Of a stretch of DNA of 64,000 nt, positions 4,633 to 61,518 are shown piece after piece. The first letter of the stretch is position 1. Every line of letters begins with the position of its first letter. This stretch comes from Allomuricauda sp. (GTDB lineage Bacteria > Bacteroidota > Bacteroidia > Flavobacteriales > Flavobacteriaceae): contig PABT01000040.1 of assembly GCA_002699205.1 (NCBI GenBank), forward strand, positions 139,774 to 203,773, read 5' to 3'. The notes below the pieces were generated by a model. It did no database searches. It worked only from the letters and a program-made list of their open reading frames with translations, and was not told where the DNA came from. Both the position numbers and the translations under genes were made by a program.

Positions 4633-4901
4633 TTGTCCCTTTGAGGACGCTATAAATCAGCAAACCGACCAAACCATTGTTCCTGACTGGAGAGCGGCCA
4701 TTGCCAAACGAAACATAAGTAGGAATTTGATGTTTTTTCGGGCAGAGGGTATCCGCCTAATCAAGTAGCATTGGGATTTTATCAATGTAAAAGTAAAATA
4801 TGACATAGGGCTTAAAAACAAATGCCGACTCTTTGTTGCAAGTCCTGAATAGTGACCGGAATATTTTGAAATTATGGATACAGCTCGCCGACAGTTTTCC
4901 C

Positions 4902-31796: not shown

Positions 31797-32059
31797 TTAT
31801 AGCCGTTTTTATATTGGAACAGGGCTATGGACTGGCACTGGTGAATCTCTGTAATCGTATTTAACAGAATCATTGGTATTTGATAATTTATTGTGATAAA
31901 ATAATTGTATTATTGAACTCTACTAAATTTTATAAAAACACTACTGATAAGATAGTTGTTCTTTTATCGAAACAATGATATTGGTTAAAAGCATTGATTC
32001 ATTTTAAAGAATGGATTCGTTCATTGGTCTGGGATAAGAAATGGAAACCTGAAATAGTT

Positions 32060-36199: not shown

Positions 36200-36331
36200 G
36201 GTTTCTCTAAAGTTGTAACCGTAAACCTTGATTATCTTCCTTCCGTTACTTTACCGATAAGGATTGATATCGAATCTTCTTTACTATCAAAATTTAAAAC
36301 GAGCCACTTGTTTTATTCGAATAAATGGGGG

Positions 36332-36402
36332 TTTTGAGTGATAATAGCAAGGGAATGATCGAATCGAGAACGCTTTGAAAGCTCATCACAACTAGCTTTG
36401 TT
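36332..36402 (+). promoter_or_regulatory. HTCS-type PUL promoter, copy 1
   Basis: 39-bp motif, 22 nt, then TAGCTTTGTT; same spacing at 38491 and 61282. Confidence 0.75.
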
Positions 36403-36650
36403 CACAAATAGAATCAAACCTAAACCCATTCACCAGGGAAAGATGTAAACCTTGTTTCCTTGTCCATGGGGATAGACTAAGCTTAAGGTGGAACCCCTTA
36501 ATTATGATGAACCCTGACCTAGGGTCATTTGCAAATGTTAAGGAGAGCCGCTTATCTCTTGATTTTTCGGTTTGCCATATCATTGGTTTGATCAGTGGGT
36601 TCAAGGCGCGTCGTATCGGCCTTTTGGACATAAATTTTAAATAATTGAAA

Positions 36651-38420
36651 ATGCGAATTAAAGTTCTCTTAGTTGTATTGCTGTTTCATAGTGTGTTTCT
36701 GATGGCACAAGAAAAACAGGAAATGGATGAAATGTGGGGTAATCAAACTACAAAACAAAAGGATGTGCCATTGGAGCGTTCGGCCATGTTTGACCAAGGG
36801 AATTATTCAATGTTCATTCATTGGGGGCTATATTCCAATATTGGCAATAAATGGAAGGATAGTACCTACTACGGCATTAGTGAATGGATCATGCACCCTA
36901 AGAGGGCGGGGATACCTGTAGCCGAATATAAGGCAGAAGCAAAGAAGTTTAATCCTGTAAATTTTGATGCGAGGGCTATTGCAAAATTGGCCAAGGATGC
37001 TGGAATGAAATATATTGTCATTACCAGCAAACACCATGATGGTTTTGCGATGTACGATTCCAAGGTCAACGACTTTAATATCGTTAAGGCAAGCCCTTAC
37101 GGAATAGATCCCATGAAAGAATTGGCAAAAGCCTGTAAAGAATTGGGTCTAGGTTTTGGTTTTTATTATTCACACAATCAAGATTGGACTTTTCCAGGTG
37201 GTAATGGCGGGCCAACGGTCAATGATCAGGGTAAAGAAGTTGGTTTTGATCATTATTTTAAAGAAAAATGTTTGCCACAGGTAAAGGAAATCGTGACCAA
37301 ATATGGCGATATAGACTTGGTTTGGTTCGATACACCCGGAGATATGAAAAAAGAGTACGTGGAAAAATTGGTCAATGTGGTCAGAAAGCATCAGCCCAAT
37401 GCCATGATTTCAGGAAGAGCTGGGCATGGACTCGGAGATTACGAGTCATTGGGAGATATGAACATTCCCGTAAAAAACTTGCCAGGTCTTTGGGAGACAG
37501 TGGATGTAACCAATGATTCTTGGGGCTATGCTTGGTATGATGAAAATTGGAAAAGCCCTGAACAGATATTAAGAAATCTTATTTCAACGGTAGCTAGGGG
37601 AGGTACATATATGCTTAATGTGGGTCCTACCCCTGACGGGAGCGTACCTGTACAGGCACAAAAGGCATTGGAGGCCTCTGGTAAATGGATAGCCAAGTAT
37701 CCACAAGTTATCTATGGAGCAGGTTCATCACCATGGGGGAGAGCACTTCCTTGGGGGGATGTCACGGTTGCTTCTGACGGAAAAATGAACATTGCCGTGT
37801 ACAAATGGCCCTTGGATGGTACACTGTGGCTTCCGGGATTGAAGAACAAGATTACTTCAGCCGTTCTTTGGGTTGATGGAAAAGGTAAGGCCCTCGAATA
37901 TGGAAGGAAGGGAGATTGGGTCAATCTGGCTCTTCCGGCAAAACGTCCCGAAAAATTGGTTTCTGTCATTGAACTTCAAGTAGAGGGAACCCCGAAAATC
38001 ACTACCAAAAACAGTATCGATCCCGTTTATATAACTGAAATTCCTGTAGATTTTGCGACTGCATCAGGATGTACCATCACCGAAAAAAGATGGATGGAAA
38101 AATTTGGGGAATGGAAACATATTACCCAAGCTCAAGATTGGAATAAGTCTGGTACTGTGACTTGGGAAATAGAAATTTTGGAAGCAGGTACTTATCAAAC
38201 AAAACTTAATTATGCGGGAGAAGGTCGTTTGGTCTGGAAAATTCTGTCCGATGAGGGATATACGGTTCAGAACCAACAGAATTCTTCGAGTATATACGAA
38301 TATCACGAAATGGGGGTGATGAAGTTTGATAAACCGGGTAAACATACCATAACAGTTTCATTGGTCAATGGGGACAGGGACAAGGTAAGTTTGAACGCTA
38401 TAAGCTTCACTCCTTGGTAA
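36651..38420 (+). CDS. GH29 alpha-L-fucosidase with C-terminal CBM-like domain
   Basis: FIHWGLYS, SEW, TSKHHDGF, VWFD nucleophile, YMLNVGP. Confidence 0.93.
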   Translation: MRIKVLLVVLLFHSVFLMAQEKQEMDEMWGNQTTKQKDVPLERSAMFDQGNYSMFIHWGLYSNIGNKWKDSTYYGISEWIMHPKRAGIPVAEYKAEAKKFNPVNFDARAIAKLAKDAGMKYIVITSKHHDGFAMYDSKVNDFNIVKASPYGIDPMKELAKACKELGLGFGFYYSHNQDWTFPGGNGGPTVNDQGKEVGFDHYFKEKCLPQVKEIVTKYGDIDLVWFDTPGDMKKEYVEKLVNVVRKHQPNAMISGRAGHGLGDYESLGDMNIPVKNLPGLWETVDVTNDSWGYAWYDENWKSPEQILRNLISTVARGGTYMLNVGPTPDGSVPVQAQKALEASGKWIAKYPQVIYGAGSSPWGRALPWGDVTVASDGKMNIAVYKWPLDGTLWLPGLKNKITSAVLWVDGKGKALEYGRKGDWVNLALPAKRPEKLVSVIELQVEGTPKITTKNSIDPVYITEIPVDFATASGCTITEKRWMEKFGEWKHITQAQDWNKSGTVTWEIEILEAGTYQTKLNYAGEGRLVWKILSDEGYTVQNQQNSSSIYEYHEMGVMKFDKPGKHTITVSLVNGDRDKVSLNAISFTPW

Positions 38421-38490
38421 ACCCGGTTACATTAGGTTGCGATAATACCTGAAAATAATTAACAAAACCGATTTTGTGTCCTTTGTGCCT

Positions 38491-38561
38491 ATTTGATGAA
38501 AAAAAGCAAAAGAATGATGGAACAGAGAAATTGGATTTTGCTTTTAACAACTAGGTTTGTT
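38491..38561 (+). promoter_or_regulatory. HTCS-type PUL promoter, copy 2
   Basis: 33/39 identity to copy 3; TAGGTTTGTT at 38552. Confidence 0.8.
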
Positions 38562-38733
38562 TATGGTTCTATGAATATATAATCGTATTCCCGTCATATG
38601 GTTCTGTACGGATTTTTGGCCGGAATCATGAAAATAAGGGATTCCCGATGGGACTCGGACTAGTCCGAAACCTATGATTACTTGATGGGAACAGGGAATT
38701 GAAATTTGAGCCATGAACAATGCTATTTGATAC

Positions 38734-40218
38734 ATGATAAAACAAATTTTTATATCCATACCTATTTTGTTGTGCACCATAGTTGGTCTGGGACAGAAAT
38801 CACCGAATGTCCCTCCTGACCTCGTGGCACCCGATTGGGAATCGATCGCAGATCATTACAAGGTGCCAGATTGGTTGCAGGATGCCAAATATGGGGTTTG
38901 GTTCCATTGGGGCATTCCATCGGCGACGGACGAAAATAGACCGAACGATGGATCATGGTATGGAAGAAATATGTATGGGGGAGCTAAAAAACAGGCCAAG
39001 GTATTGTCTGCTTGGCATACCGAGCACTATGGCCCTCCAGAAGAATTCGGTTATGAAAAATTAATCCCTCTGTTCAAGGGTGAAAATTGGGATCCAGATG
39101 CCTTGACTGCATTTGTAAAGGAAAATGGTGCCCGTTTTATTATGCCCGTTGCCACCCATCACGATAATTTTGATATGTACGATTCCTTCCATCCTTGGAA
39201 TTCCGTAGATATGGGACCAAAACGGGATGTACTCGGGGAATGGAAGTCCGCTGCTACAAAGTATGGGCTTAAGTTCGGGGTTTCTACCCATCTCTATTGG
39301 TCACCCGGATGGTGGAGACCGGCCCGTAAATACCAAACAGAGGGGACCTTGGAGTGGAAGCTGTTCAATATGGACTACGACCCGGAAAATTATGCCCACC
39401 AAGACAGCTGGAACAAACATTGGTATGCCCGCAGTTGGGAAATTGTTGAAAAGTATGACCCGGATATTTTCAATCACGATAGCGGCTCTTACCCAGAAAA
39501 GGAATTCCCTTTGTTCATTTCGGAATATCTCAATCGGGATTTGAAGGAAAACAACGGAGAACAAACGGTGGTTTTCTCTACCAAGAACCCTTCCCTGAAC
39601 CGTAAGGCCTTTACCTATAATTTGGAACGTGGTGGTGCAGATGAAATTAAAGAAGAGATTTGGTTGTGGGCAACGGATCTCTCCGGAAATTGGTTTTATC
39701 GAAAAAATGCGGTCAACAAAATGAGTATCCCCGTAATGGTGTCAAATGCTGTGGATGCGATAAGTAAGAATGGTATTGTGATGCTCAATATAGCGCTTCG
39801 TGGAGACGGTACAATTCCTGAAAAACAAATTGAATACTTGACCGCTTTTGGAGACTTCCTAAAAATCAATGGGGAAGGAATTTACGGTTCCCGTCCTTGG
39901 AAAACCTTTGGGGAAGGAACTTTGCAAATTAAGGATGGCAGGCAAGGGGAGAACCACAATAAGTACTCCCAAGCAGATATCCGATTTACCACCAAAGATG
40001 GGGTATTATATGCTTTTGTACTTGCTCCGCCAACCGATGACATTGTTATAAATACGTTGGCCAAAAATGGATTGCTGGACCAAAAAATAACCCATATAGC
40101 ATTAATGGGCAGTGATGAAAAAATAAAATGGAAACGGAACAAAAAAAACTTGACCATCCAACTGCCCGAACAGTTGCCTGGCAAAATTGTCAATGGATTT
40201 AAGATAACTGTGAAATAA
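38734..40218 (+). CDS. GH29 alpha-L-fucosidase-family enzyme
   Basis: DAKYGVWFHWG, ATHHDNF, IFNHD, MLNI, DIRFTTK C-terminal domain. Confidence 0.88.
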   Translation: MIKQIFISIPILLCTIVGLGQKSPNVPPDLVAPDWESIADHYKVPDWLQDAKYGVWFHWGIPSATDENRPNDGSWYGRNMYGGAKKQAKVLSAWHTEHYGPPEEFGYEKLIPLFKGENWDPDALTAFVKENGARFIMPVATHHDNFDMYDSFHPWNSVDMGPKRDVLGEWKSAATKYGLKFGVSTHLYWSPGWWRPARKYQTEGTLEWKLFNMDYDPENYAHQDSWNKHWYARSWEIVEKYDPDIFNHDSGSYPEKEFPLFISEYLNRDLKENNGEQTVVFSTKNPSLNRKAFTYNLERGGADEIKEEIWLWATDLSGNWFYRKNAVNKMSIPVMVSNAVDAISKNGIVMLNIALRGDGTIPEKQIEYLTAFGDFLKINGEGIYGSRPWKTFGEGTLQIKDGRQGENHNKYSQADIRFTTKDGVLYAFVLAPPTDDIVINTLAKNGLLDQKITHIALMGSDEKIKWKRNKKNLTIQLPEQLPGKIVNGFKITVK

Positions 40219-40235
40219 AAACTACCTCCGACCAA

Positions 40236-41834
40236 ATGATATTGAAACCAAAAAAAAGTATAATCCTATTGTTTGTTGGGTTTTTGAGCCTTCTAGGAAG
40301 ATCTCAGACCCATTCGTCCTCGGATAATGCCCCGAACATTATCTATATTTTGGCGGATGACCTTGGAATTGGGGATTTGAGCATCTATAACGAAAATAGC
40401 AAGATCAAAACTCCAAATCTCGACCAAATGGGGGGCCAGGGAATGATGTTCACGGACGCCCATACCTCTTCGTCGGTCTGTACCCCTACGCGATATGGAA
40501 TTTTGACTGGCAGATATAATTGGAGAACACCTTTGAAACAATTTGTGACCTGGGGCAATTCCCCCATGCTGATCAAGGATGACCGTCTAACCGTTGCGGA
40601 TATGTTGAAACAACATGGTTACAAAACAGCGGTCGTTGGGAAATGGCATCTAGGTCTTAACTGGAGCATGAAGGAAGGGGGGAAGGAATATGAGAACTAT
40701 ACGGGTATTGAAGATCGTTTTGATCCAAGTCTGATCAATTATGAAAAACCGCTGAAAAAAGGAGCGTTGGATCTGGGGTTTGATTACTCTTACTTAATAT
40801 CCGCATCCCTTAACATGCCTCCCTATGTTTACATTGAAAATGACCAGGTGGTAAGACAGCCCTATCAGGTTTCAGAAAGAAAAAAGGATGAATACCCTTA
40901 TGCAAATTGGATAAAAGGGGATATATCCCCTGATTTTAAACATGAGGAGGTCTTGCCGGTTTTTGTGGATAAAGCTGTTTCTTATATACAGGAGAATGGA
41001 AGAAAACAGAAACCTTTTTTCCTTTATATACCGCTTCCCGCACCCCATAATCCCATCTTGCCTATAGCACCGTGGAAAGGGAAAAGTAAAATCAATCCCT
41101 ATGCCGATTTTGTTTTGATGATAGATGATTTGGTAGGTAAAATATTTGAAGCAATCGAAAAAAGTGGCATAGCGGAAAATACTATGGTGATTTTTACCAG
41201 TGATAATGGCTGCGCTAAAAATGCCAACTTTTCGGTTTTAAAGGCGAAAGGACATAACCCAAGTTATATCTATAGGGGCAGCAAAGGTAGCTATTATGAA
41301 GGGGGGCACCGCGTGCCCTTTTTGGTAAAGTGGCCCGAAAAGATTAAACCTGGCAGCATATCCGATACGGCTGTGTGCACCACGGATTTCATGGCAACTT
41401 GTGCAGAAATTGTAGGCTATCGGCTTCAAGATGACGAGGGAGAGGATAGCTATAGCATGATGCCATTGTTTCAGCAAAGAGAAGGATACCAAAGAACTTC
41501 TATAGTCCATCACAGTCTGCGAGGTATTTTCGCCATCCGTAAGGGGAATTGGAAATTGATCCTATCTCCGAATTCAGGTATTTTACCAAACGGGAAGCCT
41601 GAAAAATTACCTGAAAAGTTACCCGAATACATGTTATATAATCTAGAAGAGGATATTGGCGAAACAAAGAATGTTGCCGCGCAATACCCTGATAAAGTTC
41701 GGGAACTGAAAGAGTTGCTCATTCGGCAAATTCATGACGGTAGGAGCACTCCTGGAAAAAAACAAGCCAACGATTCGATAAGTTTTCCTTGGGTACAGGC
41801 CCAATTTGCCTTTCAAGGGGTATCGGATAAATGA
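40236..41834 (+). CDS. Cys-type S1 sulfatase (S1_15-like)
   Basis: LADDLG, VCTPTRYGILTGR, GKWHLG, FTSDNG, EGGHRVP. Confidence 0.93.
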   Translation: MILKPKKSIILLFVGFLSLLGRSQTHSSSDNAPNIIYILADDLGIGDLSIYNENSKIKTPNLDQMGGQGMMFTDAHTSSSVCTPTRYGILTGRYNWRTPLKQFVTWGNSPMLIKDDRLTVADMLKQHGYKTAVVGKWHLGLNWSMKEGGKEYENYTGIEDRFDPSLINYEKPLKKGALDLGFDYSYLISASLNMPPYVYIENDQVVRQPYQVSERKKDEYPYANWIKGDISPDFKHEEVLPVFVDKAVSYIQENGRKQKPFFLYIPLPAPHNPILPIAPWKGKSKINPYADFVLMIDDLVGKIFEAIEKSGIAENTMVIFTSDNGCAKNANFSVLKAKGHNPSYIYRGSKGSYYEGGHRVPFLVKWPEKIKPGSISDTAVCTTDFMATCAEIVGYRLQDDEGEDSYSMMPLFQQREGYQRTSIVHHSLRGIFAIRKGNWKLILSPNSGILPNGKPEKLPEKLPEYMLYNLEEDIGETKNVAAQYPDKVRELKELLIRQIHDGRSTPGKKQANDSISFPWVQAQFAFQGVSDK

Positions 41835-41864
41835 TAGGTTAAAACAAACTAGGTTCAAAAATTA

Positions 41865-42929
41865 ATGCCCTATAAATATATGAAACCATACACATTATTG
41901 TTTTTTGCCGTAGTCACTTTGTTGTTTTATTCAGCAAAACCGGATAAGAGAATAAAGGAATCTTCTTTCGCGAAGTCACTGGTTCCTGGAGAATATATAC
42001 TTCCTGCGGAGGAAGGATGGTGGAATTGGGGCATGGCGCCCATTTATGACGAAAAGGGAAAGTTGCATGTGTTTATGTCCACAATCCCTAATGAGGGTAG
42101 TTGGATACGCGATAGTAAGATAGTCCATTTTATGGCGGATGGTCCAGAGGGACCCTATACATTTGTGGATACCACATTTGCAAGTCCCAAATTCACCTAT
42201 CACAACCCACAAGTATCCAAAGTGGGAGATACCTATGTAATGGTCTATTTGCGCAAGGATAGGACAACGCCAAGAATTCGGCAGGAAATCGGCATTGCTA
42301 CCACGGAATCCTTGGACAAACCCTGGGTGGAAAGTCCCCATAACCCCATCATTAAAGCTACGGGAAGTATGGGTGGGGCTAATATCATTCATGCATCAAA
42401 CCCTACCTTTTTAGTGGATGAGAATGGAAAATTCAGAATCTATTATAAATCCATCACCGATAAACATAAACCTAAGCTATACAGGGAGATCTCTATGGCC
42501 ATGAGCGATAAGATAGAAGGGCCTTATGAAAATTACAAGGAAAATCCCCTGATATCCTATGCGGATATGGGATTGGACATTGAAGATCCTTACGCATTTT
42601 ACTATAAGGGAATGTACTATATGATCGTAGAGGACCGAATGGATGTAAAAAGTGCCTTGGAAGGGAATCCAACACCGAAAAATGAAATTAAGTTGGGAGG
42701 AAACCGGCCAGGGTTGATCTATAAATCTAAAGATGGGATAGACTGGGGAAGACCGGAAATCGGGTACAATACCAATGCATATTACTTCAAACAAGAATTG
42801 GCAAGAACCGAGAGGCCTAATATTCTATGGAAGGACGGAAAGCCCGAATGTCTTTTCCTTGCGTGTCATGACAAAGACCCTACCGCTGGATTTTTCTTGA
42901 AAATTGAAGGATGGGAAGAACTGGAATAA
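41865..42929 (+). CDS. Five-bladed beta-propeller glycoside hydrolase (GH43/117-like clan)
   Basis: WGMAPIYD, HNPQV, ASNPT, IEDPY, ERPNI blade motifs; signal peptide. Confidence 0.7.
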   Translation: MPYKYMKPYTLLFFAVVTLLFYSAKPDKRIKESSFAKSLVPGEYILPAEEGWWNWGMAPIYDEKGKLHVFMSTIPNEGSWIRDSKIVHFMADGPEGPYTFVDTTFASPKFTYHNPQVSKVGDTYVMVYLRKDRTTPRIRQEIGIATTESLDKPWVESPHNPIIKATGSMGGANIIHASNPTFLVDENGKFRIYYKSITDKHKPKLYREISMAMSDKIEGPYENYKENPLISYADMGLDIEDPYAFYYKGMYYMIVEDRMDVKSALEGNPTPKNEIKLGGNRPGLIYKSKDGIDWGRPEIGYNTNAYYFKQELARTERPNILWKDGKPECLFLACHDKDPTAGFFLKIEGWEELE

Positions 42930-42996
42930 ATGGGATACATGAAGATGTCAATATAAAAAAATGGATTGTCAATATATCTACTCAAAATAACCACCT

Positions 42997-44889
42997 ATGA
43001 AGATTTTTATTTATTTATTTGTTTGTTTCACGATTTTCACCTCCTGCAAAGATTCAAAACAGGAGAAAGATGCCATTCTCGGGGATGGTGAGAGACCCAA
43101 TATACTTTGGATTAGAAGTGAGGACAATGGCACTTACATTGGTCCTTACGGGGACAAAATAGCTCAAACCCCCAATTTGGACAAATTAGCGGAACAAGGG
43201 GTGCGCTATTCCAATGCTTTTGCCAATGCACCGGTCTGTGCAGTGAACAGGAGCTCCATAATCCTTGGCGTTCCGGCCATTACGACGGGGACCCATCACA
43301 TGCGGAGCAGATATCGGGTTCCAGATTCACTTGTACCATACCCAACACTTTTAAAAGAAGCAGGGTACTACCTCACCAGCTATGGTAGGACAGATTATAA
43401 TAATTCCAGTTTCGATAGCGAAATTTATGATGAATATGGTAAGAAGGCACATTATAGAAACCGACCAGAAGGAAAACCGTTCTTTCACGTATTTAACATA
43501 TTGTCCACCCATGAAGGACAGATATTCGAACGACATTATCCTGAAAAATATCCAGAGGCCCAGACACCCGCAGAGGGTATCGTAGTACCTCCCTACCAAG
43601 TCAATACCCCTGAGAACATTAAAGACTGGCAGCGGGTTTATGACAGGGTTGCCGATATGGATAAGAAAGTAGGGGAATTCCTTGCCGACCTTGAGGAATC
43701 TGGTGAAGCCGAAAATACGATAGTAATCTATTCCCCGGACCATGCCGGAATCACACTTCGCTCCAAACGTTATATTTATGACAGTGGGACACGGGTGCCC
43801 CTGATTATTTATTTTCCGGAGAAATGGAAGCATCTGGCCCCTGGTAAACCGGGGTCTGTCATTGAACGTCTTGTTCAAATGACCGATATACCACCAACAT
43901 TGCTTTCGCTTGCCGGTGCAAAAGTGCCCGACTATATGACCGGACATATTTTTTTGGGTCCGTCAGTTGAACCAGCACCGGAAACCGTATTGCTTTTCTC
44001 CGATCGTTTTGTCTCTGCACCGGAAATGAGGAGAGGTCTTACCGATGGGCGTTGGAAATACATCCGAAACTATGAGCCAGACCGTCCAAGATTTCAAATG
44101 ATCACCTACCCCTTGTACCACCCAGGGCAACTTTCCCAGGTAAGGGAATATCAGGCGGGAAGAACGACTCCTGCCCAATCGGCATTTTTCCTTCCCCAAC
44201 CTCCCGAAGAACTTTATGACACCCAGGCAGATCCACATGAAATTGAAAATCTTGCAGGTCTTCCAGAATATGCGGACAAACTTGAGGACATGGGCCAGAA
44301 ACTGAACAAACAATTGTTGGCAGCCCGTGATGCAGGGTTTATTCCCGAGCCAATGATGGAAGCTATTGATAAGGATAGTTCCACAACGATCTATGATTTT
44401 GGCCAATCGACAAAACAATATCATCTCGATGAAATTTTTGCTGTTGCCAACAAGGCCCAGAAGAAGGATCCGAGCCTGATTCCGGATTTGGTTGAGAACG
44501 TGAAAGCGGATGATCCCATAATTCGGTACTGGTCTATCCTGGGACTTCGAGCATTGGGTAAGGAAGCCAAACCAGCCCTTAAAGAGATAGAAACGGCATT
44601 GGAAGATCCAGAAATAAGTGTTCGTATAACGGCTATGATCGCCTTGGGAAATATAGGCCAACGTAGTAGGGCTTTGGAATTACTTGTCAAAGAGGCAAAA
44701 GATGCAACCACGGATGTCCAGGCTAACTGGGCACTGCATGCTATAAAATATCTTGATGCCCCCGAGGCAATTGAGGGTTTTGATGAAAAAGAGCTTGTCA
44801 AAGGTTCTGATTCCCGAAGAACCTTCCTGGACCTTGCACATGGGGGTACCATGTATCAACCCGCTGTTTATGACGAGCTTCAATATTAA
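42997..44889 (+). CDS. S1 sulfatase lipoprotein with C-terminal HEAT repeats
   Basis: Lipobox FTSC; SEDNG; VCAVNRSS; PDHAG; HEAT-like DPIIRYWSILGL, DPEISVRITAMIAL. Confidence 0.85.
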   Translation: MKIFIYLFVCFTIFTSCKDSKQEKDAILGDGERPNILWIRSEDNGTYIGPYGDKIAQTPNLDKLAEQGVRYSNAFANAPVCAVNRSSIILGVPAITTGTHHMRSRYRVPDSLVPYPTLLKEAGYYLTSYGRTDYNNSSFDSEIYDEYGKKAHYRNRPEGKPFFHVFNILSTHEGQIFERHYPEKYPEAQTPAEGIVVPPYQVNTPENIKDWQRVYDRVADMDKKVGEFLADLEESGEAENTIVIYSPDHAGITLRSKRYIYDSGTRVPLIIYFPEKWKHLAPGKPGSVIERLVQMTDIPPTLLSLAGAKVPDYMTGHIFLGPSVEPAPETVLLFSDRFVSAPEMRRGLTDGRWKYIRNYEPDRPRFQMITYPLYHPGQLSQVREYQAGRTTPAQSAFFLPQPPEELYDTQADPHEIENLAGLPEYADKLEDMGQKLNKQLLAARDAGFIPEPMMEAIDKDSSTTIYDFGQSTKQYHLDEIFAVANKAQKKDPSLIPDLVENVKADDPIIRYWSILGLRALGKEAKPALKEIETALEDPEISVRITAMIALGNIGQRSRALELLVKEAKDATTDVQANWALHAIKYLDAPEAIEGFDEKELVKGSDSRRTFLDLAHGGTMYQPAVYDELQY

Positions 44890-44910
44890 TAATTAAGAAG
44901 AAATTATACT

Positions 44911-45930
44911 GTGAAAAAGTCAATCTTAGCATCAATCTTGTTTGTGTTTATTTTATATGCAAGCATCCAAATGGCTGATCAGGAACAGAGTTCTTCTGGT
45001 GAGAAAGATTATGCTTTGCTAGAGCTCGGTTTGATTGATTCCAGTATAAAAAGCGAGATAAAATCAATAAATAAAGCATCACATATTGATCGATCAGAGG
45101 GAGGTGAATACGATTTGGGGGATTATCCGGATACCCTAACCGCATATTTGGGCGCAACCCCTACCCTTGATGGTTTCATCGGAGAAGGTGAATATGATGA
45201 TGCTGAAAAAATATTGGGTGTCTCAGGTTGGCACAGCGACACTCCCCCAGCTTCTGAAAACACCAAGGACCTCTCCGTTGTTGGTTGGGTAAAACACGAC
45301 GGCAATAGCTTGTATTTGGCATTCGATGTCACGGATGACGTTATTTATGGTTTTGATACGGAGCGTTGGTTGCCTTCAGGTAATCCCGATGCAAATAAAT
45401 TGAACTATGATAAAGGATGGCCATTTTGGGGAGATGGCATTGAGCTTATGATGAATTCGACCTATAAATGGGATGATGGTAGTAGATGTGTGGGAGATGG
45501 TAGAAGCTGGCAATTCTGTTGTAGTACCAATAAATCTGTTCTTGGTGGTTTGGGGGTTGGAGGACTGTCTTCAGGACTGCCACTTAATGAGGAAGTTTGG
45601 AATCGTTATGAGAGTTGGATAAGAAATGGAGATATGGAAGCCGCTGTCCGTTTAAAGGATAAGGAGGAGGGGCGAGGCTATGTTTTTGAGTGGCGGATTA
45701 ACCCAAATCCATGTATGATGATTGATGATACAACCTATGTGGATTTGTCCAAGGAAACTAAAGTAGGGTTCAATATTGAACTTCAGGATCTTGATGAGAA
45801 AGAAAAAGGCAAAGGTAATTTCTCCAATATGCATCACATTGATTATTGGGCCAAGGTTGCGTCTAACAGAAAAACCGATCTCAAATCATTCGGTACATTA
45901 ATAATAAAACCAGAAAAGAAAGAACATTGA
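44911..45930 (+). CDS. Stand-alone CBM9/DOMON-like sugar-binding protein
   Basis: GTG start; PTLDGFIGEGEY, LYLAFDVTDD, GDGIEL, GYVFEWRI, VGFNIELQD. Confidence 0.7.
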   Translation: MKKSILASILFVFILYASIQMADQEQSSSGEKDYALLELGLIDSSIKSEIKSINKASHIDRSEGGEYDLGDYPDTLTAYLGATPTLDGFIGEGEYDDAEKILGVSGWHSDTPPASENTKDLSVVGWVKHDGNSLYLAFDVTDDVIYGFDTERWLPSGNPDANKLNYDKGWPFWGDGIELMMNSTYKWDDGSRCVGDGRSWQFCCSTNKSVLGGLGVGGLSSGLPLNEEVWNRYESWIRNGDMEAAVRLKDKEEGRGYVFEWRINPNPCMMIDDTTYVDLSKETKVGFNIELQDLDEKEKGKGNFSNMHHIDYWAKVASNRKTDLKSFGTLIIKPEKKEH

Positions 45931-46000
45931 ATTTAGCGAAGCCCAAAATAGGGTGGAGAATATGATAATAAAAAACCATACCAACAGAGTCATATAAAAA

Positions 46001-48259: not shown

Positions 48260-48264
48260 ATGCC

Positions 48265-49242: not shown

Positions 49243-49256
49243 GTAAATCATTAAAA

Positions 49257-50798: not shown

Positions 50799-50871
50799 CA
50801 CAAATAGGAAGCAGCTAAACATTGGTGTTTCATCGGTTATCCTATTCAATAAAGAGATGTAAACATAAAAA

Positions 50872-52362: not shown

Positions 52363-52368
52363 ACAAAG

Positions 52369-53643
52369 ATGTTAATCTCAGGTACTTTTAAGAGTTGTGC
52401 GAAGTATATTTTAAGTGGATTATTGACTGCTACTTGTTTTTCACTGATAGCACAGAACAATCAAAAATCATTGGTTGATATATTGGAGCCTAAGGTGTTC
52501 CGTGCACCCAAGATTTTTTGGGAACCAACCAAAGACCAAGGGAAGGTTAAAGCCTTGTTTTATGAAACCCTCGATTATAAAGGAAAACCAACCAGGGCTT
52601 TTGCCTATCTGGGGATTCCCGACGGGGATACTCCTGTCCCCGCAATGGTACTGGTGCATGGCGGTGGAGGCAAGGCATTTTACGAATGGGTGAAAATATG
52701 GAACGATAGAGGTTATGCGGCAATTTCAATGAGCTTGGAAGGGCACCGGCCAGATGAAGAGGGCAATGGCAAACATCGTCATGAATTTAGTGGCCCTACT
52801 CGGGTTGGACGTTTCGAAGATGTCGAAAAACCAATAAAGGAGCAATGGATGTACCATGCTGTTTCAGACATTTTATTGGCACATTCATTATTGGCTTCAT
52901 TACCCGAAGTTGATGCCGATCGCATAGGAATTACCGGCATCTCATGGGGTGGAATTTTGAGCAGTCTCGTATCGGGGGTGGACAGTAGATTAAAATGTGC
53001 GATTCCTGTTTATGGTGCGGGATTCTTGAATGAATCAAAAGGTCATTTCGGAGACCATGGGGATGCCACCGCCGAATATATTGAAAAGAAGAAATTTTGG
53101 GACCCAGCGAACCAGTTTGCGAATGGTAATGTACCGACACTATGGGTAAATGGAGATTCCGACGGACATTTTTCCCTTAATATTACCTCTCGTTCTTTTC
53201 AGGTAACTGCAGACCATGCCTATATGAGTATCCATCCAGGTATGCGACATGGACATCCACCAGGGTGGAACCCTGAGGAAGTACCGGAAATTTATGCGTT
53301 TGCAGATTATGAGTTGAAAAAATCAGGATATCCCTTGGCTCGGATTGTAAAACAACCATCCGGTAAAAAGCTTAGATTAAAGTATAGGTCGGAATTACCA
53401 ATAATAGAGGCCAAAGTATATTACCTCAATGAAGAATTGACCTATAGAAAAGAATCTGAATCAGATAAGCACGCAAGACCAAGTACATGGCAAAGTATTA
53501 CGGCAGATATCGATGAATCAAAACAAATGGTCAAGGCAAAACTGCCCAAAAGTGCCCGAACATATTATGTGAATCTAAAAGATTCAAGAGGGTTGATAAT
53601 TTCATCCATTTTAGTGCAATTAAAAGATAATCAAAGAAACTAA
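52369..53643 (+). CDS. Alpha/beta-hydrolase carbohydrate esterase (deacetylase candidate)
   Basis: VHGGGG oxyanion loop, GISWGG nucleophile elbow, D in GDSDGHF, H in MRHGH; signal peptide. Confidence 0.8.
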   Translation: MLISGTFKSCAKYILSGLLTATCFSLIAQNNQKSLVDILEPKVFRAPKIFWEPTKDQGKVKALFYETLDYKGKPTRAFAYLGIPDGDTPVPAMVLVHGGGGKAFYEWVKIWNDRGYAAISMSLEGHRPDEEGNGKHRHEFSGPTRVGRFEDVEKPIKEQWMYHAVSDILLAHSLLASLPEVDADRIGITGISWGGILSSLVSGVDSRLKCAIPVYGAGFLNESKGHFGDHGDATAEYIEKKKFWDPANQFANGNVPTLWVNGDSDGHFSLNITSRSFQVTADHAYMSIHPGMRHGHPPGWNPEEVPEIYAFADYELKKSGYPLARIVKQPSGKKLRLKYRSELPIIEAKVYYLNEELTYRKESESDKHARPSTWQSITADIDESKQMVKAKLPKSARTYYVNLKDSRGLIISSILVQLKDNQRN

Positions 53644-53646
53644 AGT

Positions 53647-55503
53647 ATGGGAACAAGAAGAATCGGAACAAGAATAGCATCTGTAATAACATTGGTATTG
53701 ATGTTTTCATCAGGTTTGGCAAGGGCTCAGAACAAAAGTGAAGCCAAACTGTGCAATGATGAATCTATGGACTGGTTTCGGGAAGCAAAATTTGGGATGT
53801 TCATCCATTTTGGGGCGGAAACCCCAGAGCGATTAGAGCACAGTGATTTGACCCGAACGGAAAAATATGAAATTGCGGTAAAAGAATTTAACCCTGTTGA
53901 TTTTGATGCAAAAGAATGGGTTAAAATAGCCAAAGATGCGGGAATGAAGTACATCGTATTTACTACCAAACATCATGATGGGTTCTGTAAATGGGATTCA
54001 AAATTAACGGATTGGGATGTAATGGATCAAACCTCCTTCAAACGGGATATTGTGGGAGAATTGGCCGAAGCCTGCAAAGAAGCGGGAATTGAACTTGGAT
54101 TCTACTATTCCATAGCAGATTGGCATCACCCCGAATACGACCCGGTTTACAGCAATCGCAACGGATTCCATTTTAACCCCAATCCCGATGCGGATATTAC
54201 CAAGTATATGGATTATATGTATGGCCAAATAAGGGAATTGTGCGAAAATTATCAACCCCGTCTATTTTGGTTCGATGGCTCTGGTGGTTTTAGAAATCCG
54301 AACAAGAAGCGCATATTGGGACAACAAGAGATGATGGATTTGTTGAGTTCTTATGGGGCGATAAGCAATAGTCGCTATGGGGATGACGATTCCTTAAAAT
54401 ATGTCAATTACCTATCAATGGGTGATAATATGTCTCCATCAGGAAATATAGGAGTGCCTTTTGAGACAGCCCAAACCATGAACAACTCTTGGCATTTTGA
54501 AGCAAGTGACGAGGATTGGAAATCGGCAGATACCTTGTTGGAATATCTGGTCAAAATTGTTGGGAACGGAGGAAATTATTTGTTGAATGTAGGTCCGGAT
54601 CGCAATGGGGTAATTCCCGAAGCGTCCCAAAACAGGCTTAAAATAATGGGAGATTGGCTTAAAACAAATGGAGAAGCCATATACGGGACCAAGGCGGGCC
54701 CTTATCCCTACGAATTAAATTGGGGGTCAATGACCCAACGAAAGAAGGGAGATAGAACAATACTTTATTTGAATGTGGTAGACTGGCCACAGGATGGAAC
54801 CTTTAAATTATATGGCCTTATGAACAAGGTCTTAAAGGCAAGCCTTTTAGCTGACCGAACCGAGCTTTCTACATCAAATGAATTCAATGCTTCGGCAGGG
54901 TTGAATGTTGTATCGATACAAGTTCCTAAAACGGCACCTGACCCCTATGTTTCGGTTATTTCTTTGGAAATAGAAGGGGAGCCGGTGATTGATGGACATT
55001 TTTTGCAGCAAAATGACGACACGGTCTTATTGGATGCATTCTATTCCACGATTCATGATGAAAAACTCGTGCCGAACAAGCCACTACGACCAGTAGACCA
55101 AAAAATATTCACTGTAATGCAAAAAGGGGAGGGAATTATGCCCACAAGGGGGATGACCGTAGGTTTGAATAAAACGGGACAGGCCTTGACATGGGATTTT
55201 AGAATGGTTAACCCTGGAACTTATGAAGTCGCAGTAGTTTGTAATGCAGGAGAAAACCAAAAATGGGAAGCGGATGGAAAAATGAAAGTGACCGTGGCAG
55301 GTCAATCGGTTGAAAACAAACTTAGGGAAGATGAAAGAAAAGAGAACCGATGGATGGCACACAATATGAAAAGTGTGGTCTCCAAAATAGGAAAAATAAC
55401 GATTAACACGGCTGGGATGAAAACCCTGACCTTGGAAGTTACATCTGATTTTAATGATTTAAAACCCAATGTTCGATACGTTCAACTTGTACCGATCAAA
55501 TAA
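53647..55503 (+). CDS. GH29 alpha-L-fucosidase-family enzyme with C-terminal CBM-like domain
   Basis: [31 protein letters not shown]. Confidence 0.9.
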
Positions 55504-55525
55504 ACCTACAAATTTATATAAGCAA

Positions 55526-57385
55526 ATGAAAAAATACAGTTTACAAAGTGCTATCATCGCCCTGACCTTACTATTGGGTAGTTGTGGAGACAGGGCACAA
55601 AAGGCAACGGAAAAAGTGGAAGAGCCAGGGAGGGCCCCCAATGTGCTGATCGTGGTCACCGATGACCAGGGGTATGGGGATTTTGGTTTTACGGGAAACC
55701 CCGCGATCAAGACCCCCACGATAGACAAACTCAGTAAGGAGGGAACGCTGTTGAACAATTTCCATGTGGATCCCACATGCGCGCCAACCCGTGCGGCCCT
55801 GATGACGGGGCGTTATTCTGACCGGGTCGGTGTTTGGCACACCGTTCAAGGACGTAACATGTTGCGCAGGCGCGAAACCACTATGGCAGATGTATTCGGC
55901 GCCAATGGTTATGCCACAGGGCTATTTGGTAAATGGCACCTTGGGGATTGTTACCCCTACCGACCTGAAGACCGAGGTTTCCAGTACAGTGTTTACCATA
56001 AGGCCGGGGGCGTGGGCCAGGCCCCGGATTATTGGGGGAACGATTATTTTGATGACACGTACATCGTCAATGGCAAGCACCAGCGTTTTGAAGGTTATTG
56101 CACCGATATTTGGTTCAACGAAGGGATGAAGTTTATCAAGAAAAACAAGGATAATCCATTTTTTGCCTATATCTCGCTCAATGCTCCGCATAAACCCCTT
56201 TACTGCCCCGAAGAATATGTCAAGCCCTATGTGAATGACCCCAGGGTATCTTTTCCGGAATTTTATGGTATGATAACCAATATCGATGATAATATGGCAC
56301 GTCTGTTGAAAATGTTGGATGACGAGGGCATTGCGGACAACACTATACTCATCTTTATGACGGACAATGGTACCGCAAGCGGGATCGTTGACGGTAGGGG
56401 CTACGATGGTGGCATGCGCGGGATGAAAAATTCGGAATATGAGGGAGGACACCGTGTGCCCTTCATTATCCGTTGGCCAAATGGAAAAATAGCGGAGGGA
56501 AAATCGATTGAGGAGCTCACCGCACATATTGATATTCTCCCTACGCTCATTGATCTATGTGGGCTCGATGCACCTGAAATCGAATACGATGGCACCAGCA
56601 TTAGGGAACTTCTATATTCAGAAAACCCAGATTGGCCCAAGCGTTCCTTGGTGGTAGAGTCGCAAAGGGTGGTAGACCCCATCAAATGGCGTAAAAGTGC
56701 AGTGATGTACGATCGCTGGCGTTTGGTCAATGGGAAAGAACTGTACCAACTGGACCAAGACCCCAAACAGACTACGGACGTTGCAGAGGTAAATCCAGAG
56801 GTGTTTAAACAGTTACAAGGGGAATACAATACATTTTGGGACGATGTCTCACAAGAACACGACCTGACCAGCTATATGGTCATCGGGTCCGATCGTTCGC
56901 CTATTGTCTCTCTTTCCTCACATGATTGGTTGATCGATAGACTTCCACCATGGAACCAAGGACATATCATCAACGGAGAGGTGGCCGAAGAATCCTTTTG
57001 GGCCATTGAAGTGGAGCATGACGGCGAATATGAAATTTCACTTAGGCGCTGGCCGGTTGAAGCGGACAAGGGAATCAATGACGGTACTTATGGCAAGGCT
57101 TTCAATTACCAGCAGGCCCGTATGCGAATCGGGGATTTTGATGAAACCGTTGACATTCCCGAAGGAGCCAAGGAGGTTACCTTTAGGGTGAACCTGAAAA
57201 AGGGCGTCACCAAACTGGCCCCTTTGTTCATCGGTCCGGATTTGACCGCCACCCCTTATTATGCCTATGTTACACATAAACCCAAACCGGGTTGGCAAAC
57301 ACCCGAGGGAATGGGGATTCCAGTGTACGATCCATCTTATGGAAGAGTGCCGCCCCAGAAAAAACAAATAAATATTTCCGAGTAA
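55526..57385 (+). CDS. Cys-type S1 sulfatase lipoprotein (S1_17-like) with C-terminal extra domain
   Basis: Lipobox LGSC; [32 protein letters not shown]. Confidence 0.93.
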
Positions 57386-57395
57386 TTAAGAACGG

Positions 57396-59252
57396 ATGCA
57401 AGACATTTTGACAAAAATTGTAATCGCTGTGGTTGCTGCGATTGGATTACTCCATTCCTGTGAACCCCATTCGAACTTGGTTGTCCAGGACGCTAGCTTT
57501 TGGGTGGTTCTTGAAGCTGAAGAGGCAAAAGAAACAGGGAATGAATTGTTTTGGGAGTTTCAACTAAACAGACCAGGGATCTATAACATCCAAATTTTAA
57601 GGGATGGGGAGCAGGTTGCTCCTTTGCCCAAGGTTTCCCTGTCCAGTGCTGGCGTTAGCATGGAAGAAGAACCTCCAAACATTTTTGTAATTCAAGAAGC
57701 AGGGGAACAAAAAACGGTTTCACAGTTTAACAAAACCATACAATATGATACTGCCGGATTGCACAACTTGGTTCTAAAAGTGGATGTTCCAATTGATAAG
57801 GTTCGCATTACTCCTCTCTATAGCAAGAATCTTGGTTTTGGGACTGATACGTATTATGGGGAATGGTTGCAAATGCACCAATCCCCGGAGAAACAAGCAG
57901 CCTTGGAATGGTTTAAAGATGCTAAATATGGCATGTTCATCCATTGGGGGCTGTATTCCCAAGCCGGGGGCATTTGGAAGGGGGAGCGAATGGAAGATTC
58001 GAAAAACCCCGGCCCCAACGTTTCGGAATGGTTGATGCATAAATTTCAGATACCTAGAAAGGAGTATGCCGAAATGGCCAAAACCTTTGACCCGGATAAC
58101 ACTTTTGCCAAAAATATCGCCAAACTGGCGAAAGATGCCGGGATGAAATATGTGGTCATTACCACGAAGCACCATGACGGATTTGCTTTGTTTGATTCAA
58201 AATGTTCGGAGTATGATATGGTGGATGCCACGCCGTATAAGGCAGATGCCGTAAAGGAATTATATGAAGCCTGTTTGGCGGAAGGTTTGGCTTTTGGGGT
58301 ATATTACTCACATGGTAATGATTGGTACGACGGTACAGATGGCAATTACGCAAATGTTAAAAAGCGCAATGATTCTCTGGGGATTCTGACCCATGCCAGT
58401 GGGAAAAACCTTTGGGATCCCAGTCCGAACACACACGCTGGGTACATAGAGAACAAAGCATTGCCACAAGTTCAAGAGCTCCTGGATTTGCTCCCAAAGT
58501 TGCGCTTGTTCTGGTTTGATGGAGATGGTTTTATAACCGAAGCCCAAGCTTTTAAGTTCTATAAGCTCGTCTACGAAAACAATCCAAGTATTTTGGTAAA
58601 TCGTAGGGTTGGTTTTGATTTTGGGGATTATTTGGACGCAGGAGACAATAAAATCCCAGCTGTATCCGATCAATTGACCAAGTATTTCGAAACATGTGGG
58701 ACAACCAACAATTCTTGGGCATACAAATCTTATGACAATGATTGGAAAAGCACCAAAGAACTCCTTTATTACCTTGTTGACATAGCTTCCAAAGGGGGTA
58801 ATTACTTGTTGAATATTGGACCGGATGGTAAAGGAAATGTGCCGGAACAAAGTCAAATACGACTTAGGGCAATTGGAGAATGGTTGGATGTATATGGTGA
58901 TGCGATCTATGGGACTACCCGATGGAAGATCACAAAAGAAGGTGGGGATGAAACCTTACTGGGAGGAACGGAGCATAGGGCCAAGAAAGGCTTCTCCCGT
59001 ACTTTTTCATCGAATGATTTTTGGTTTACTACGAAAGGAAACAAGGTATATGTCATTTCCTTGGTAAATCCGGATAAATCCATCAATATAAAATCTTTAA
59101 ACGTTGACCAGGGGGAAGTTCAGGATGTGAGGTTGCTTGGCAATACCGTTGATCTTCAATGGGCGCAAAGTAACACTGGGTTAACGGTGGATTTGACAGG
59201 AATTTCTGTGAACGATAACGGATATGCCCTTGAAATAACTTTAAAAAAATAA
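57396..59252 (+). CDS. GH29 alpha-L-fucosidase lipoprotein with N-terminal CBM-like domain
   Basis: Lipobox LHSC; about 150-aa N-terminal beta domain; [27 protein letters not shown]. Confidence 0.92.
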   Translation: MQDILTKIVIAVVAAIGLLHSCEPHSNLVVQDASFWVVLEAEEAKETGNELFWEFQLNRPGIYNIQILRDGEQVAPLPKVSLSSAGVSMEEEPPNIFVIQEAGEQKTVSQFNKTIQYDTAGLHNLVLKVDVPIDKVRITPLYSKNLGFGTDTYYGEWLQMHQSPEKQAALEWFKDAKYGMFIHWGLYSQAGGIWKGERMEDSKNPGPNVSEWLMHKFQIPRKEYAEMAKTFDPDNTFAKNIAKLAKDAGMKYVVITTKHHDGFALFDSKCSEYDMVDATPYKADAVKELYEACLAEGLAFGVYYSHGNDWYDGTDGNYANVKKRNDSLGILTHASGKNLWDPSPNTHAGYIENKALPQVQELLDLLPKLRLFWFDGDGFITEAQAFKFYKLVYENNPSILVNRRVGFDFGDYLDAGDNKIPAVSDQLTKYFETCGTTNNSWAYKSYDNDWKSTKELLYYLVDIASKGGNYLLNIGPDGKGNVPEQSQIRLRAIGEWLDVYGDAIYGTTRWKITKEGGDETLLGGTEHRAKKGFSRTFSSNDFWFTTKGNKVYVISLVNPDKSINIKSLNVDQGEVQDVRLLGNTVDLQWAQSNTGLTVDLTGISVNDNGYALEITLKK

Positions 59253-59253
59253 C

Positions 59254-60696
59254 ATGAAAAACTCACTTATTTACTTCTTGATTTTTATGTCCGTTTTTGC
59301 CCATGCGCAAGAAGGGCAAAAGGGAAACAAGCCAGAAAAGAAGAAAAGGGATATAAGTTTCGAGTATCGTTTTCCTGAAGACTTAAAACAGACTCCAGAT
59401 TCGGAACGGCGATTGGATCAATGGTTCCGAGATGCCAAATTTGGCGCCTTTATCCATTTCGGGGTTTATTCCACCTTGGAAGGGGAGTACAAAGGACGTG
59501 GGTCTGACTTTCGCTATAGTGAATGGATTCAAGTTTCTGCAAAGATTCCTGCCAATGAATATCATGGGATAGCCGCACAATTTAACCCCGTTGATTTTGA
59601 TGCCGAAGCTTGGGTCAAAGTTTTTAAGGATGCAGGGATGCGTTATGTGGTCATCACTTCTAAACACCATGATGGATTTGCCTTGTTTAAGTCTGAGGTA
59701 AGTAATTACAATATAGTTGATTATACCCCTTTTAAGCGTGATATCATTAAAGAATTGAGTGAAGCCTGTCATAAAAATGGATTGAAGTTTGGGGTCTATT
59801 ATTCCCAGGCCCAGGATTGGGATGAGCCCAATGCTCCCTTTTTGAACAAAAAAGCATCCGCGTTTGACCTTCACCCAGAGTTGCCCGAGGACTTTGAACC
59901 GGATATGGATAGTTATATTATGGGGAAATCCCTTCCTCAGGTAGAGGAACTGGTTAAAAATTATGAAATTGATTTGTTGTGGTTTGATACTCCGGTTGGA
60001 ATGACCTATGAACGGGCCAAATTGTTTTCGGACATGGTTCGGAAATACCGCCCCAATTGCGTAATCAATTCACGAATCATCCATAATGGAAAATCAAGAA
60101 TCGAAGCTAAAAATTTACCTTTATTTGACTATGTGTCCATTGGAGATAAGGAAGTGCCCACAAAAAAGCTTCCCCTTTATGTTGAATCCCCTGATTGTGT
60201 TAGCTCATCCTTTGGCTACAAAACACATGGCAAGGTATATTATCACGATGTTAAAGAGTTGATCCATCGTATGGTGAGTACAGTATGTGTTGGTGGAAAT
60301 TATTTGTTGAACAACGGACCAATGGGTAACGGAAGATTGGATCCGGAAGCCGTTCGTTTGTATGGGGAAATCGGCCAGTGGATGAAATTGAACAGTGAAT
60401 CTATTCTGGATACACGTCCCAATCCTTTTCCATATAAACCCGAATGGGGAGGCATTAGTATGAACAAGGATGGATCAATATTATACCTTCATGTTCTTAA
60501 TATGCCAGAATCAGGGACTATTTCGCTAAAGGGATTACCTGTGACCGTGACTTCGGCAAAATATCTTTCCAATGATAGTATGGTAAACTTTGTGCAAGAC
60601 GGGGATCATGTTCGTTTCACAGAACTTCAACATACAATTGATCCCATTGATGTTGTGGTCAAGGTTGTGTTGAAGACCCCCTGGTTTAAAGATTAA
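59254..60696 (+). CDS. GH29 alpha-L-fucosidase
   Basis: DAKFGAFIHFG, SEW, TSKHHDGF, LWFDT, YLLN. Confidence 0.93.
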   Translation: MKNSLIYFLIFMSVFAHAQEGQKGNKPEKKKRDISFEYRFPEDLKQTPDSERRLDQWFRDAKFGAFIHFGVYSTLEGEYKGRGSDFRYSEWIQVSAKIPANEYHGIAAQFNPVDFDAEAWVKVFKDAGMRYVVITSKHHDGFALFKSEVSNYNIVDYTPFKRDIIKELSEACHKNGLKFGVYYSQAQDWDEPNAPFLNKKASAFDLHPELPEDFEPDMDSYIMGKSLPQVEELVKNYEIDLLWFDTPVGMTYERAKLFSDMVRKYRPNCVINSRIIHNGKSRIEAKNLPLFDYVSIGDKEVPTKKLPLYVESPDCVSSSFGYKTHGKVYYHDVKELIHRMVSTVCVGGNYLLNNGPMGNGRLDPEAVRLYGEIGQWMKLNSESILDTRPNPFPYKPEWGGISMNKDGSILYLHVLNMPESGTISLKGLPVTVTSAKYLSNDSMVNFVQDGDHVRFTELQHTIDPIDVVVKVVLKTPWFKD

Positions 60697-60822
60697 AAGA
60701 CATAGGTAATCCTATTCAAAATAAATCGGGAAACAATTGTATTATTTATTGGGCCTGTAGTGGTAAAACAAAGAACCATTGGTGGATAATAAATAACTTC
60801 TTTCTTAATTCGGAGTACAACG

Positions 60823-60932
60823 GTTCCTGTCCCTTAGATTCAAAAAACGTATTCTTTGCACTTTTCCGGTCTATTTGTTCGCCGACCATTAAGGAAAACA
60901 AAAAACATAAGCTTCATCTTAGGGACAGGCAC
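60823..60932. repeat. Imperfect 17-bp inverted repeat enclosing 76 bp
   Basis: GTTCCTGTCCCTTAGAT (60823-60839) / ATCTTAGGGACAGGCAC (60916-60932), 2 mismatches. Confidence 0.55.
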
Positions 60933-61281
60933 TCGATTGTAGTCAGGAAATATCTACACCAAAAACCATACTGGAAGGAGTAATGGGAACCATTCATAAG
61001 TAGATAATTTTAATTGGAAATAAACGGCACTTGCTGTTATAGTGACACAGGATGGAGGCGTAGTTGTTGCTCCAGGGTTTAATGCATTTGTAATTGGGTG
61101 ATTAATCTAAAATGAAAGAAAAACAACCTTTTAGGAACAACTTTTTTTCACCTTACTGTTTTCAATTCAATAGCGTCAATTCCGTATGGACTCTGTTTAA
61201 AAAATGCGGCGAAATATAAATTGTACAAATATTGACGCCCATTTTTGTTGCTTTATCGTTTATTCGGTCATGTTTTTGGCA

Positions 61282-61352
61282 TTTTGATGGAAATAAGCAA
61301 AAGAAAGATGGATGAGAGAAATATGAACGAATATCAGGTGGGTAGGTTTGTT
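61282..61352 (+). promoter_or_regulatory. HTCS-type PUL promoter, copy 3 (susC)
   Basis: 39-bp motif, 22 nt, then TAGGTTTGTT at 61343. Confidence 0.8.
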
Positions 61353-61518
61353 CAACGCTGCAATGATGGCCGTAACGATTGTTGTGCTCATTGGCAAGAT
61401 AATTCAATAATCAATTTCAAAATAGTTCATATGATAAAATGAAAAAGTATAAAAATCAACAATAAAAATGACTGACAACTTATGTGCACTAAACTAAATA
61501 CTAATGCAAACTAAAATT

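Follow-up and report, generated by a model that had tools for sequence, protein, structure and literature searches.

A tandem-repeat promoter element, predicted operator of an AraC-type hybrid two-component regulator, at fucoidan loci of Allomuricauda and other marine Flavobacteriaceae

We analyzed a 64,000-nt stretch, here called the window, from the 4.47-Mb marine metagenome-assembled genome of an Allomuricauda sp. (GenBank assembly GCA_002699205.1, contig PABT01000040.1, positions 139,774 to 203,773 of the forward strand). The window carries a locus for fucoidan or another fucose-rich sulfated glycan, and three copies of a 39-nt element lie there upstream of a GH29 fucosidase gene, a 22-kb run of enzyme genes, and a susC gene. 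This element is likely the operator of the adjacent hybrid two-component sensor/regulator (HTCS), which has an AraC-type DNA-binding domain; the prediction draws on the build of the element, its fixed distance to the promoter, and its recurrence beside HTCS orthologues. The architecture, with tandem half-sites 21 bp apart, is a known one for HTCS operators and is new in this lineage and for this substrate. We regard the result as solid and useful rather than surprising.

Few algal glycans resist degradation as strongly as fucoidan, which is important for carbon storage in the sea. The regulation of polysaccharide utilization loci (PULs) has been worked out almost solely in gut Bacteroides (PMC7641319), and the element described here extends the 21-bp tandem half-site rule for HTCSs to marine Flavobacteriaceae. 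An operator with a defined promoter register is a direct handle for electrophoretic mobility shift assays and reporter tests. It also allows regulon members, functionally uncharacterized proteins among them, to be predicted in hundreds of marine genomes. We found no account of this fucoidan-locus element in our literature searches.

The three sites and their register to the promoter

All three copies are on the plus strand, with the letters quoted by an earlier, sequence-only reading of this DNA, and they agree pairwise at 28, 27, and 33 of 39 positions. That reading had also placed a Bacteroidota -7 element 22 nt after each copy. We found exactly this distance in every case, ending in TAG[C/G]TTTG (TAGCTTTGTT at 36393, and TAGGTTTGTT at both 38552 and 61343). 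The 22-nt spacers themselves are unrelated and non-conserved. All three boxes fit TAnnTTTG, the -7 box of Bacteroidota sigma-A promoters.

36332..36370, plus strand: operator 1, with half-sites at 36335-36350 (TGAGTGATAATAGCAA) and 36356-36371 (TGATCGAATCGAGAAC)
36393..36400, plus strand: -7 box of promoter 1, TAGCTTTG; transcription start predicted at about 36405
38491..38529, plus strand: operator 2, with half-sites at 38494-38509 and 38515-38530
38552..38559, plus strand: -7 box of promoter 2, TAGGTTTG; start predicted at about 38564
61282..61320, plus strand: operator 3, with half-sites at 61285-61300 and 61306-61321
61343..61350, plus strand: -7 box of promoter 3, TAGGTTTG; start predicted at about 61355

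The similarity of the three sites is far beyond chance. A matrix built from them scored its own sites at 54 to 58 bits across the whole genome, where the next score was 16 bits. When leave-one-out matrices were made from any two sites, the held-out third ranked 3rd of 8,928,614 positions, behind the two training sites only. A matrix made from nine sites of other genera or genomes ranked the window sites 1 to 3, at 39.4 to 41.9 bits, with the next position at 14.6. The genome-wide scan that had been proposed as a way to find distant fucan genes was thereby carried out, and it returned no distant sites, only these three in the 4.47-Mb genome.

The anatomy of the element was derived from 33 sites from many genomes. 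Their consensus is tTGat.GAaat.AGCAAa..aaTGat.gA.tAgAGAA, followed by N22 and then TAnnTTTG. It is a direct repeat of the 16-bp half-site TGATnGA-N4-AG[C/A]AA with a 5-bp spacer, for a period of exactly 21 bp. The self-match over the 33 sites is 0.58 at offset 21, versus 0.24 to 0.38 at every other offset from 8 to 29; thus, the 21-bp period that had been described as weak is real and stronger than claimed.

The sigma-A box TAnnTTTG of flavobacteria is located at -12 to -5 (PMC9723704). With the box in this position, the operator end, 22 nt upstream, would fall at -35. The operator would then span about -73 to -35, with half-site centers at about -62.5 and -41.5 relative to the predicted starts. 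A TTG at 17 to 21 nt upstream of the -7 box, the usual place of the -33 element, was present at only 2 of the 33 sites, and at 1 of the 3 window sites. Its absence from the other 31 suggests that these promoters need an activator.

Recurrence of the element beside orthologous regulators

The regulator gene next to the sites ends 133 nt before operator 1.

31994..36199, plus strand: HTCS, 1401 aa from a TTG start, assigned by Pfam domains

It encodes a periplasmic Reg_prop/Y_Y_Y sensor followed by HisKA, HATPase_c, Response_reg, and AraC-type HTH_18/HTH_AraC domains, with a predicted phospho-acceptor at D1199 and a C-terminal AraC-type double helix-turn-helix. The true start may be later than annotated, because orthologues align from about residue 25. 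Such orthologues are many in marine Flavobacteriaceae, at 54 to 82% identity. Among those that we fetched, the DNA-binding domain is 70 to 87% identical, and overall identity to the window protein is 55 to 73%. The segments STSHFYRRLKQ and SNSYFSTSFKK are near-invariant in the orthologue DNA-binding domains; paralogues are about 35% identical.

We obtained orthologous loci through homologous proteins and the contigs that encode them (one of these, L084, ends just after the HTCS). The first matrix, built solely from the three window sites, was then scanned over the fetched loci. Its best matches all have the 22-nt gap to TAnnTTTG and all point at the downstream gene:

Allomuricauda: site before a sulfatase gene, divergent from the HTCS, 43.5 bits
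Kriegella: sites before an esterase gene and a sulfatase gene
Aurantibacter: site before a GH29 gene
Arenibacter: sites before an esterase gene and a sulfatase gene
Flagellimonas eckloniae: site before susC
Winogradskyella arenosi: sites before several genes

As negative controls we used 79 loci of paralogous HTCSs (about 30% identity, about 1.3 Mb), taken from a related-locus search with the HTCS. The best score among them was 16.3, and none had the layout of motif, 22-nt gap, and box. Motif, spacing, and orientation recur beside HTCS orthologues (42 to 82% identity) in more than 15 Flavobacteriaceae genomes, upstream of genes for GH29 fucosidases, sulfatases, esterases, SusC, and fucose catabolism. 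In no fewer than 8 genera, the distance from the HTCS stop codon to an operator is about 200 nt or less. Recurrence beside orthologues, absence from the 79 paralogue loci, and a 21-bp layout like that in Bacteroides together support the earlier proposal that the motif is the HTCS operator.

We then measured co-occurrence in 400 other Flavobacteriaceae genomes from 302 genera, using a sequence-only covariance model of operator, spacer, and -7 box (A1, R1) with cut-offs of E <= 1e-4 for the motif and E <= 1e-250 for the HTCS orthologue. The motif was found in 13 genomes and the orthologue in 12; both were found in 9, versus about 0.4 expected (Fisher p = 2.3e-13). In 8 of these 9, a site is on the HTCS contig no more than 37 kb from the HTCS, and in two genomes (G176 and G127) a site directly follows the HTCS stop codon. 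Two genomes scored as having the HTCS only retain weak matches on the HTCS contig, and a genome of the same genus as the window (G295) has neither motif nor orthologue. An operator-only matrix applied to 20-kb regions around the model hits located further sites, among them divergent pairs some 180 bp apart before susC and GH29, and nearly all have a TAnnTTTG-like box at exactly 22 nt.

In genomes outside the training set, the genes downstream of sites encode an esterase, sulfatases, GH29, SusC, GH2, GH43-like, and GHL15 proteins, an aldehyde dehydrogenase, and a cupin-AraC regulator, as well as a protein with a type IX secretion sorting domain. Based on functions such as esterase, sulfatase, GH29, and SusC, the predicted regulon is functionally coherent. 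If the prediction is true, the operator could serve to find uncharacterized fucoidan-active proteins, among them a 630-aa Winogradskyella protein without a Pfam match and small proteins with type IX sorting domains.

Several loci show variations on this layout. Divergent pairs of sites lie about 130 to 250 bp apart, each promoter with its own operator, with susC on one side and GH29 on the other (GHL15 in L151). These are at about 10030 (minus strand) with 10210 to 10280 (plus strand) in L144, L147, and L150, and at 15074 (minus) with 15208 (plus) in L151. In these four loci, which are from more distant genera, half-site 1 reads TGCAnAA, not TGATnGA. The HTCS orthologue of G176 (C97:10347-14471, locus L140, 70% identity) has one in-frame TAA while two strong downstream operators (50 to 51 bits) are kept; the TAA could be an error in the sequence or the sign of a newly formed pseudogene. 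Flagellimonas eckloniae (G404), a known fucoidan degrader, has matches at C1:271584-271656 (minus, 28.8 bits) and C1:313747-313814 (plus, 23.9 bits), 1.2 Mb from its HTCS orthologue; these matches could point to another fucoidan locus or to a remote member of the regulon.

Operator-like sites were also seen before a cupin-AraC gene and, in two genera, before an aldehyde (probably lactaldehyde) dehydrogenase gene, with poor -7 boxes (L146 of G039:C3 at 10034, L004 at 4521, and L148 of G018:C1 at 10013, all on the minus strand). From their position, the polysaccharide sensor may stand at the head of a cascade that leads to fucose catabolism. Tentatively, there may be a fucoidan/fucose regulon across marine Flavobacteriaceae, in which the sensor acts on cupin-AraC and lactaldehyde dehydrogenase and in which the HTCS-proximal operator is functional, not a mere matter of operon layout. 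Such a proximal operator would keep the target DNA near the insertion point of the membrane-tethered regulator. We hold this wider picture to be possible and still doubtful.

Predicted mechanism, related systems, and alternatives

The layout suggests how the HTCS could act on these promoters. A fucoidan-derived ligand, presumably an oligosaccharide, would be sensed by the periplasmic sensor, leading to phosphorylation of the receiver and release of the DNA-binding domains. The freed domains would bind the three operators, with one AraC-type domain of the HTCS dimer on each half-site and both on the same face of the DNA, and recruit RNA polymerase. The operator would take the place of the missing -33 TTG, the proximal domain abutting the -35 region and replacing the -33 contact, in class II activation of the AraC-I1/I2 type. 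GH29 alone, the 22-kb enzyme operon, and susC onward would thereby be switched on.

E. coli AraC at araI1-I2 and the regulators at XylS/RhaS-type promoters use two direct-repeat half-sites 21 bp apart, at about -72 to -35. In these systems the proximal half-site abuts or overlaps the -35 region, and the promoter has a weak upstream element. The geometry described here appears to be alike. Those regulators are soluble one-component proteins working with sigma-70 -35/-10 promoters, whereas here a membrane-tethered HTCS would work with a Bacteroidota -7/-33 promoter.

The closest likeness is to HTCS operators in Bacteroides. Ravcheev et al. 2013 (PMC3878776; RegPrecise) predicted motifs for 16 B. 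thetaiotaomicron HTCSs, all of them direct repeats averaging 21 bp apart, and the predicted HTCS_Man operator consists of two 16-bp sites with a 5-bp spacer (PMC3878776). The element shares with these an AraC-type HTCS at the locus, a 21-bp direct repeat, sites before susC and enzyme operons of the same PUL, and discovery by conservation across genomes (PMC3878776). It differs in being found in marine Flavobacteriaceae, in serving a fucoidan or fucose-rich sulfated glycan locus, and in its half-site sequence. Two further features documented here are the constant 22-nt distance to the -7 box and the lack of a -33 element.

DNA binding has been shown, from 2024, for two Bacteroides HTCSs: response-regulator fragments of BT4124 and BT4663 bind such promoters in vitro, at bt4114/bt4108 and bt4662 (PMC11253607, PMC13292587). 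The sites here likewise have tandem half-sites, predicted to be recognized by the AraC-type domains of an HTCS. In BT4124 and BT4663, a latch between the receiver and the DNA-binding domain gates binding (PMC11253607, PMC13292587). The window HTCS has a similar latch-like sequence, SHIS (residues 1221-1224, window positions 35650-35665), versus the Bacteroides consensus C/SHIP, and S1221-H1222 match the S-H residues that had been replaced by A-D in BT4124. In contrast to these experimentally tested proteins, the window HTCS is known from sequence.

A second comparison is with the alginate loci of Zobellia galactanivorans, where the sites of the GntR-type repressor AusR overlap the -7 box (PMC7641319). 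In both cases, a conserved operator is tied to a TAnnTTTG -7 box in marine flavobacterial PUL promoters and was found by genome comparison. Unlike the AusR sites, the element here lies upstream of the -7 box, has another structure, and would be bound by another regulator family.

Several points weigh against the HTCS as an activator acting through this element. Neither a contig nor a transcript covering 35800-39200 was present in three metatranscriptomes made from the same samples. The activated fragment of BT4124 acted as a repressor of its targets in Bacteroides, and computational prediction did not recover the full set of sites there (PMC13292587), so that activation is not assured here and a list of sites may be incomplete. 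The spacing in the matches selected by R1 is partly built in, because that model contained the -7 box; the operator-only matrix did not contain it, and for its secondary matches the box at 22 nt is still seen. Finally, one genome of the sample, G332, has a strong site (46.8 bits) and no HTCS orthologue, its best HTCS match being 36% identical.

The G332 site bears on whether the operator is real and yet bound by some other regulator that travels with fucoidan loci, either a stand-alone cupin-AraC protein or the neighboring OmpR-type response regulator (31080-31757 in the window, minus strand), which we consider quite improbable. In G332 the syntenic block begins with a cupin-AraC gene and continues with sulfatase, GH29, SASA esterase, sulfatase, the site, and another sulfatase, and an HTCS on the same contig has a DNA-binding domain only 42/124 identical. 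(In this locus, L141 at C84:24308-44307, the cupin-AraC gene is at 1679-2566, the strong site at 10001, and a weaker one at 4779.) The site reflects either a recent loss of the regulator, leaving an "orphan" operator, or its use or takeover by another protein. Similar cupin-AraC genes are found in the Aurantibacter and Winogradskyella loci, and the OmpR-type two-component pair is divergent from the HTCS in the window. Neither candidate is consistently beside the motif, however, and both were rated unlikely as the binder. No cupin-AraC or OmpR-type gene was called in the fetched Kriegella, Arenibacter, and Flagellimonas loci with strong sites, and the fetched loci of HTCS orthologues gave no call for the divergent OmpR-type pair (29800-31757). 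The window genome is without a close homologue of the cupin-AraC protein; the best match, 36% identical, is about 105 kb upstream on the same contig, outside the window. The cupin-AraC DNA-binding domain is also unrelated to that of the HTCS (28/117 identical). OmpR-type sites usually have a repeat of 10 to 11 bp, whereas a period of 21 bp fits domains of the AraC type. The HTCS is the only regulator gene beside the motif in nearly all cases, and its DNA-binding domain and the motif are conserved together.

That the HTCS binds and represses, or acts both ways, is quite improbable in our judgment, even though in Bacteroides a constitutively active response-regulator fragment of BT4124 reduced expression of the PUL genes that it targets (PMC13292587). 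Among the HTCSs studied, the majority activate their PULs (PMC7641319). All of the operator is upstream of the -7 box, with its end predicted at about -35, and the lack of the -33 element in 31 of the 33 promoters is the usual mark of activator dependence, so that the geometry, in contrast to the BT4124 result, suggests activation. Three copies within 25 kb could in principle also have arisen without any part in regulation, by duplication of a promoter or as a mobile repeat. Against this, 25 motif positions and the spacer length are conserved whereas spacers and flanks are not, the same pattern stands upstream of non-homologous genes in distant genera, and the copies lack inverted-repeat ends, with none present in the rest of the genome. 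Because of the conservation across genera, we consider this explanation effectively refuted.

Gene content of the locus

The genes that follow the three sites, and the two-component pair on the other side of the HTCS, are as follows.

36651..38420, plus strand: GH29 alpha-L-fucosidase (Pfam); the ATG at 36651 gives a signal-peptide-like N terminus
38734..60696, plus strand: run of 14 enzyme genes (open reading frame [ORF] list and Pfam) with tight spacing, the largest gap being 74 nt
61504..63999, plus strand: SusC-like TonB-dependent transporter (Pfam), continuing past the window end and without an STN domain
29800-31757, minus strand: OmpR-type two-component pair (response regulator at 31080-31757 and histidine kinase; Pfam), divergent from the HTCS

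The 14-gene run contains four GH29 genes, five sulfatase genes, GH43-like and GH141-like beta-helix genes, an esterase gene, and two genes without a Pfam match. These 22 kb are probably one operon, and the matrix scan placed no further operator within them. By gene spacing alone, the locus is consistent with the three transcription units that the sequence-only reading had predicted (GH29 alone, the 22-kb enzyme operon, and susC onward), with limits that are likewise predicted. A terminator scan remained at background level, with no terminator detected after GH29 or after the enzyme operon, and read-through is therefore possible. A sigma-70 promoter scan also gave background level.

We considered control of the PUL by an ECF-sigma/anti-sigma pair, with an ECF-sigma promoter, and rated it unlikely: the SusC N terminus has CarboxypepD_reg and Plug domains only, with no STN, and none of the 19 ORFs between 29800 and 64000 has a sigma-factor domain. 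Given the predicted starts, the three 5' leaders would be long and measure about 245 nt (36405-36650), 170 nt (38564-38733), and 149 nt (61355-61503). Their folding z-scores against shuffled sequences are -2.2, -1.2, and +1.4, respectively, a somewhat better fold than that of the shuffles for the first leader only. We dropped a leader RNA element as a candidate because the leaders are not convincingly structured and Rfam gave no match in the window. Between the last GH29 gene and operator 3 is a 585-nt non-coding gap (60697-61281), which holds a 17-nt inverted repeat (60823-60839 and 60916-60932) with 88% complementarity and arms 76 nt apart.

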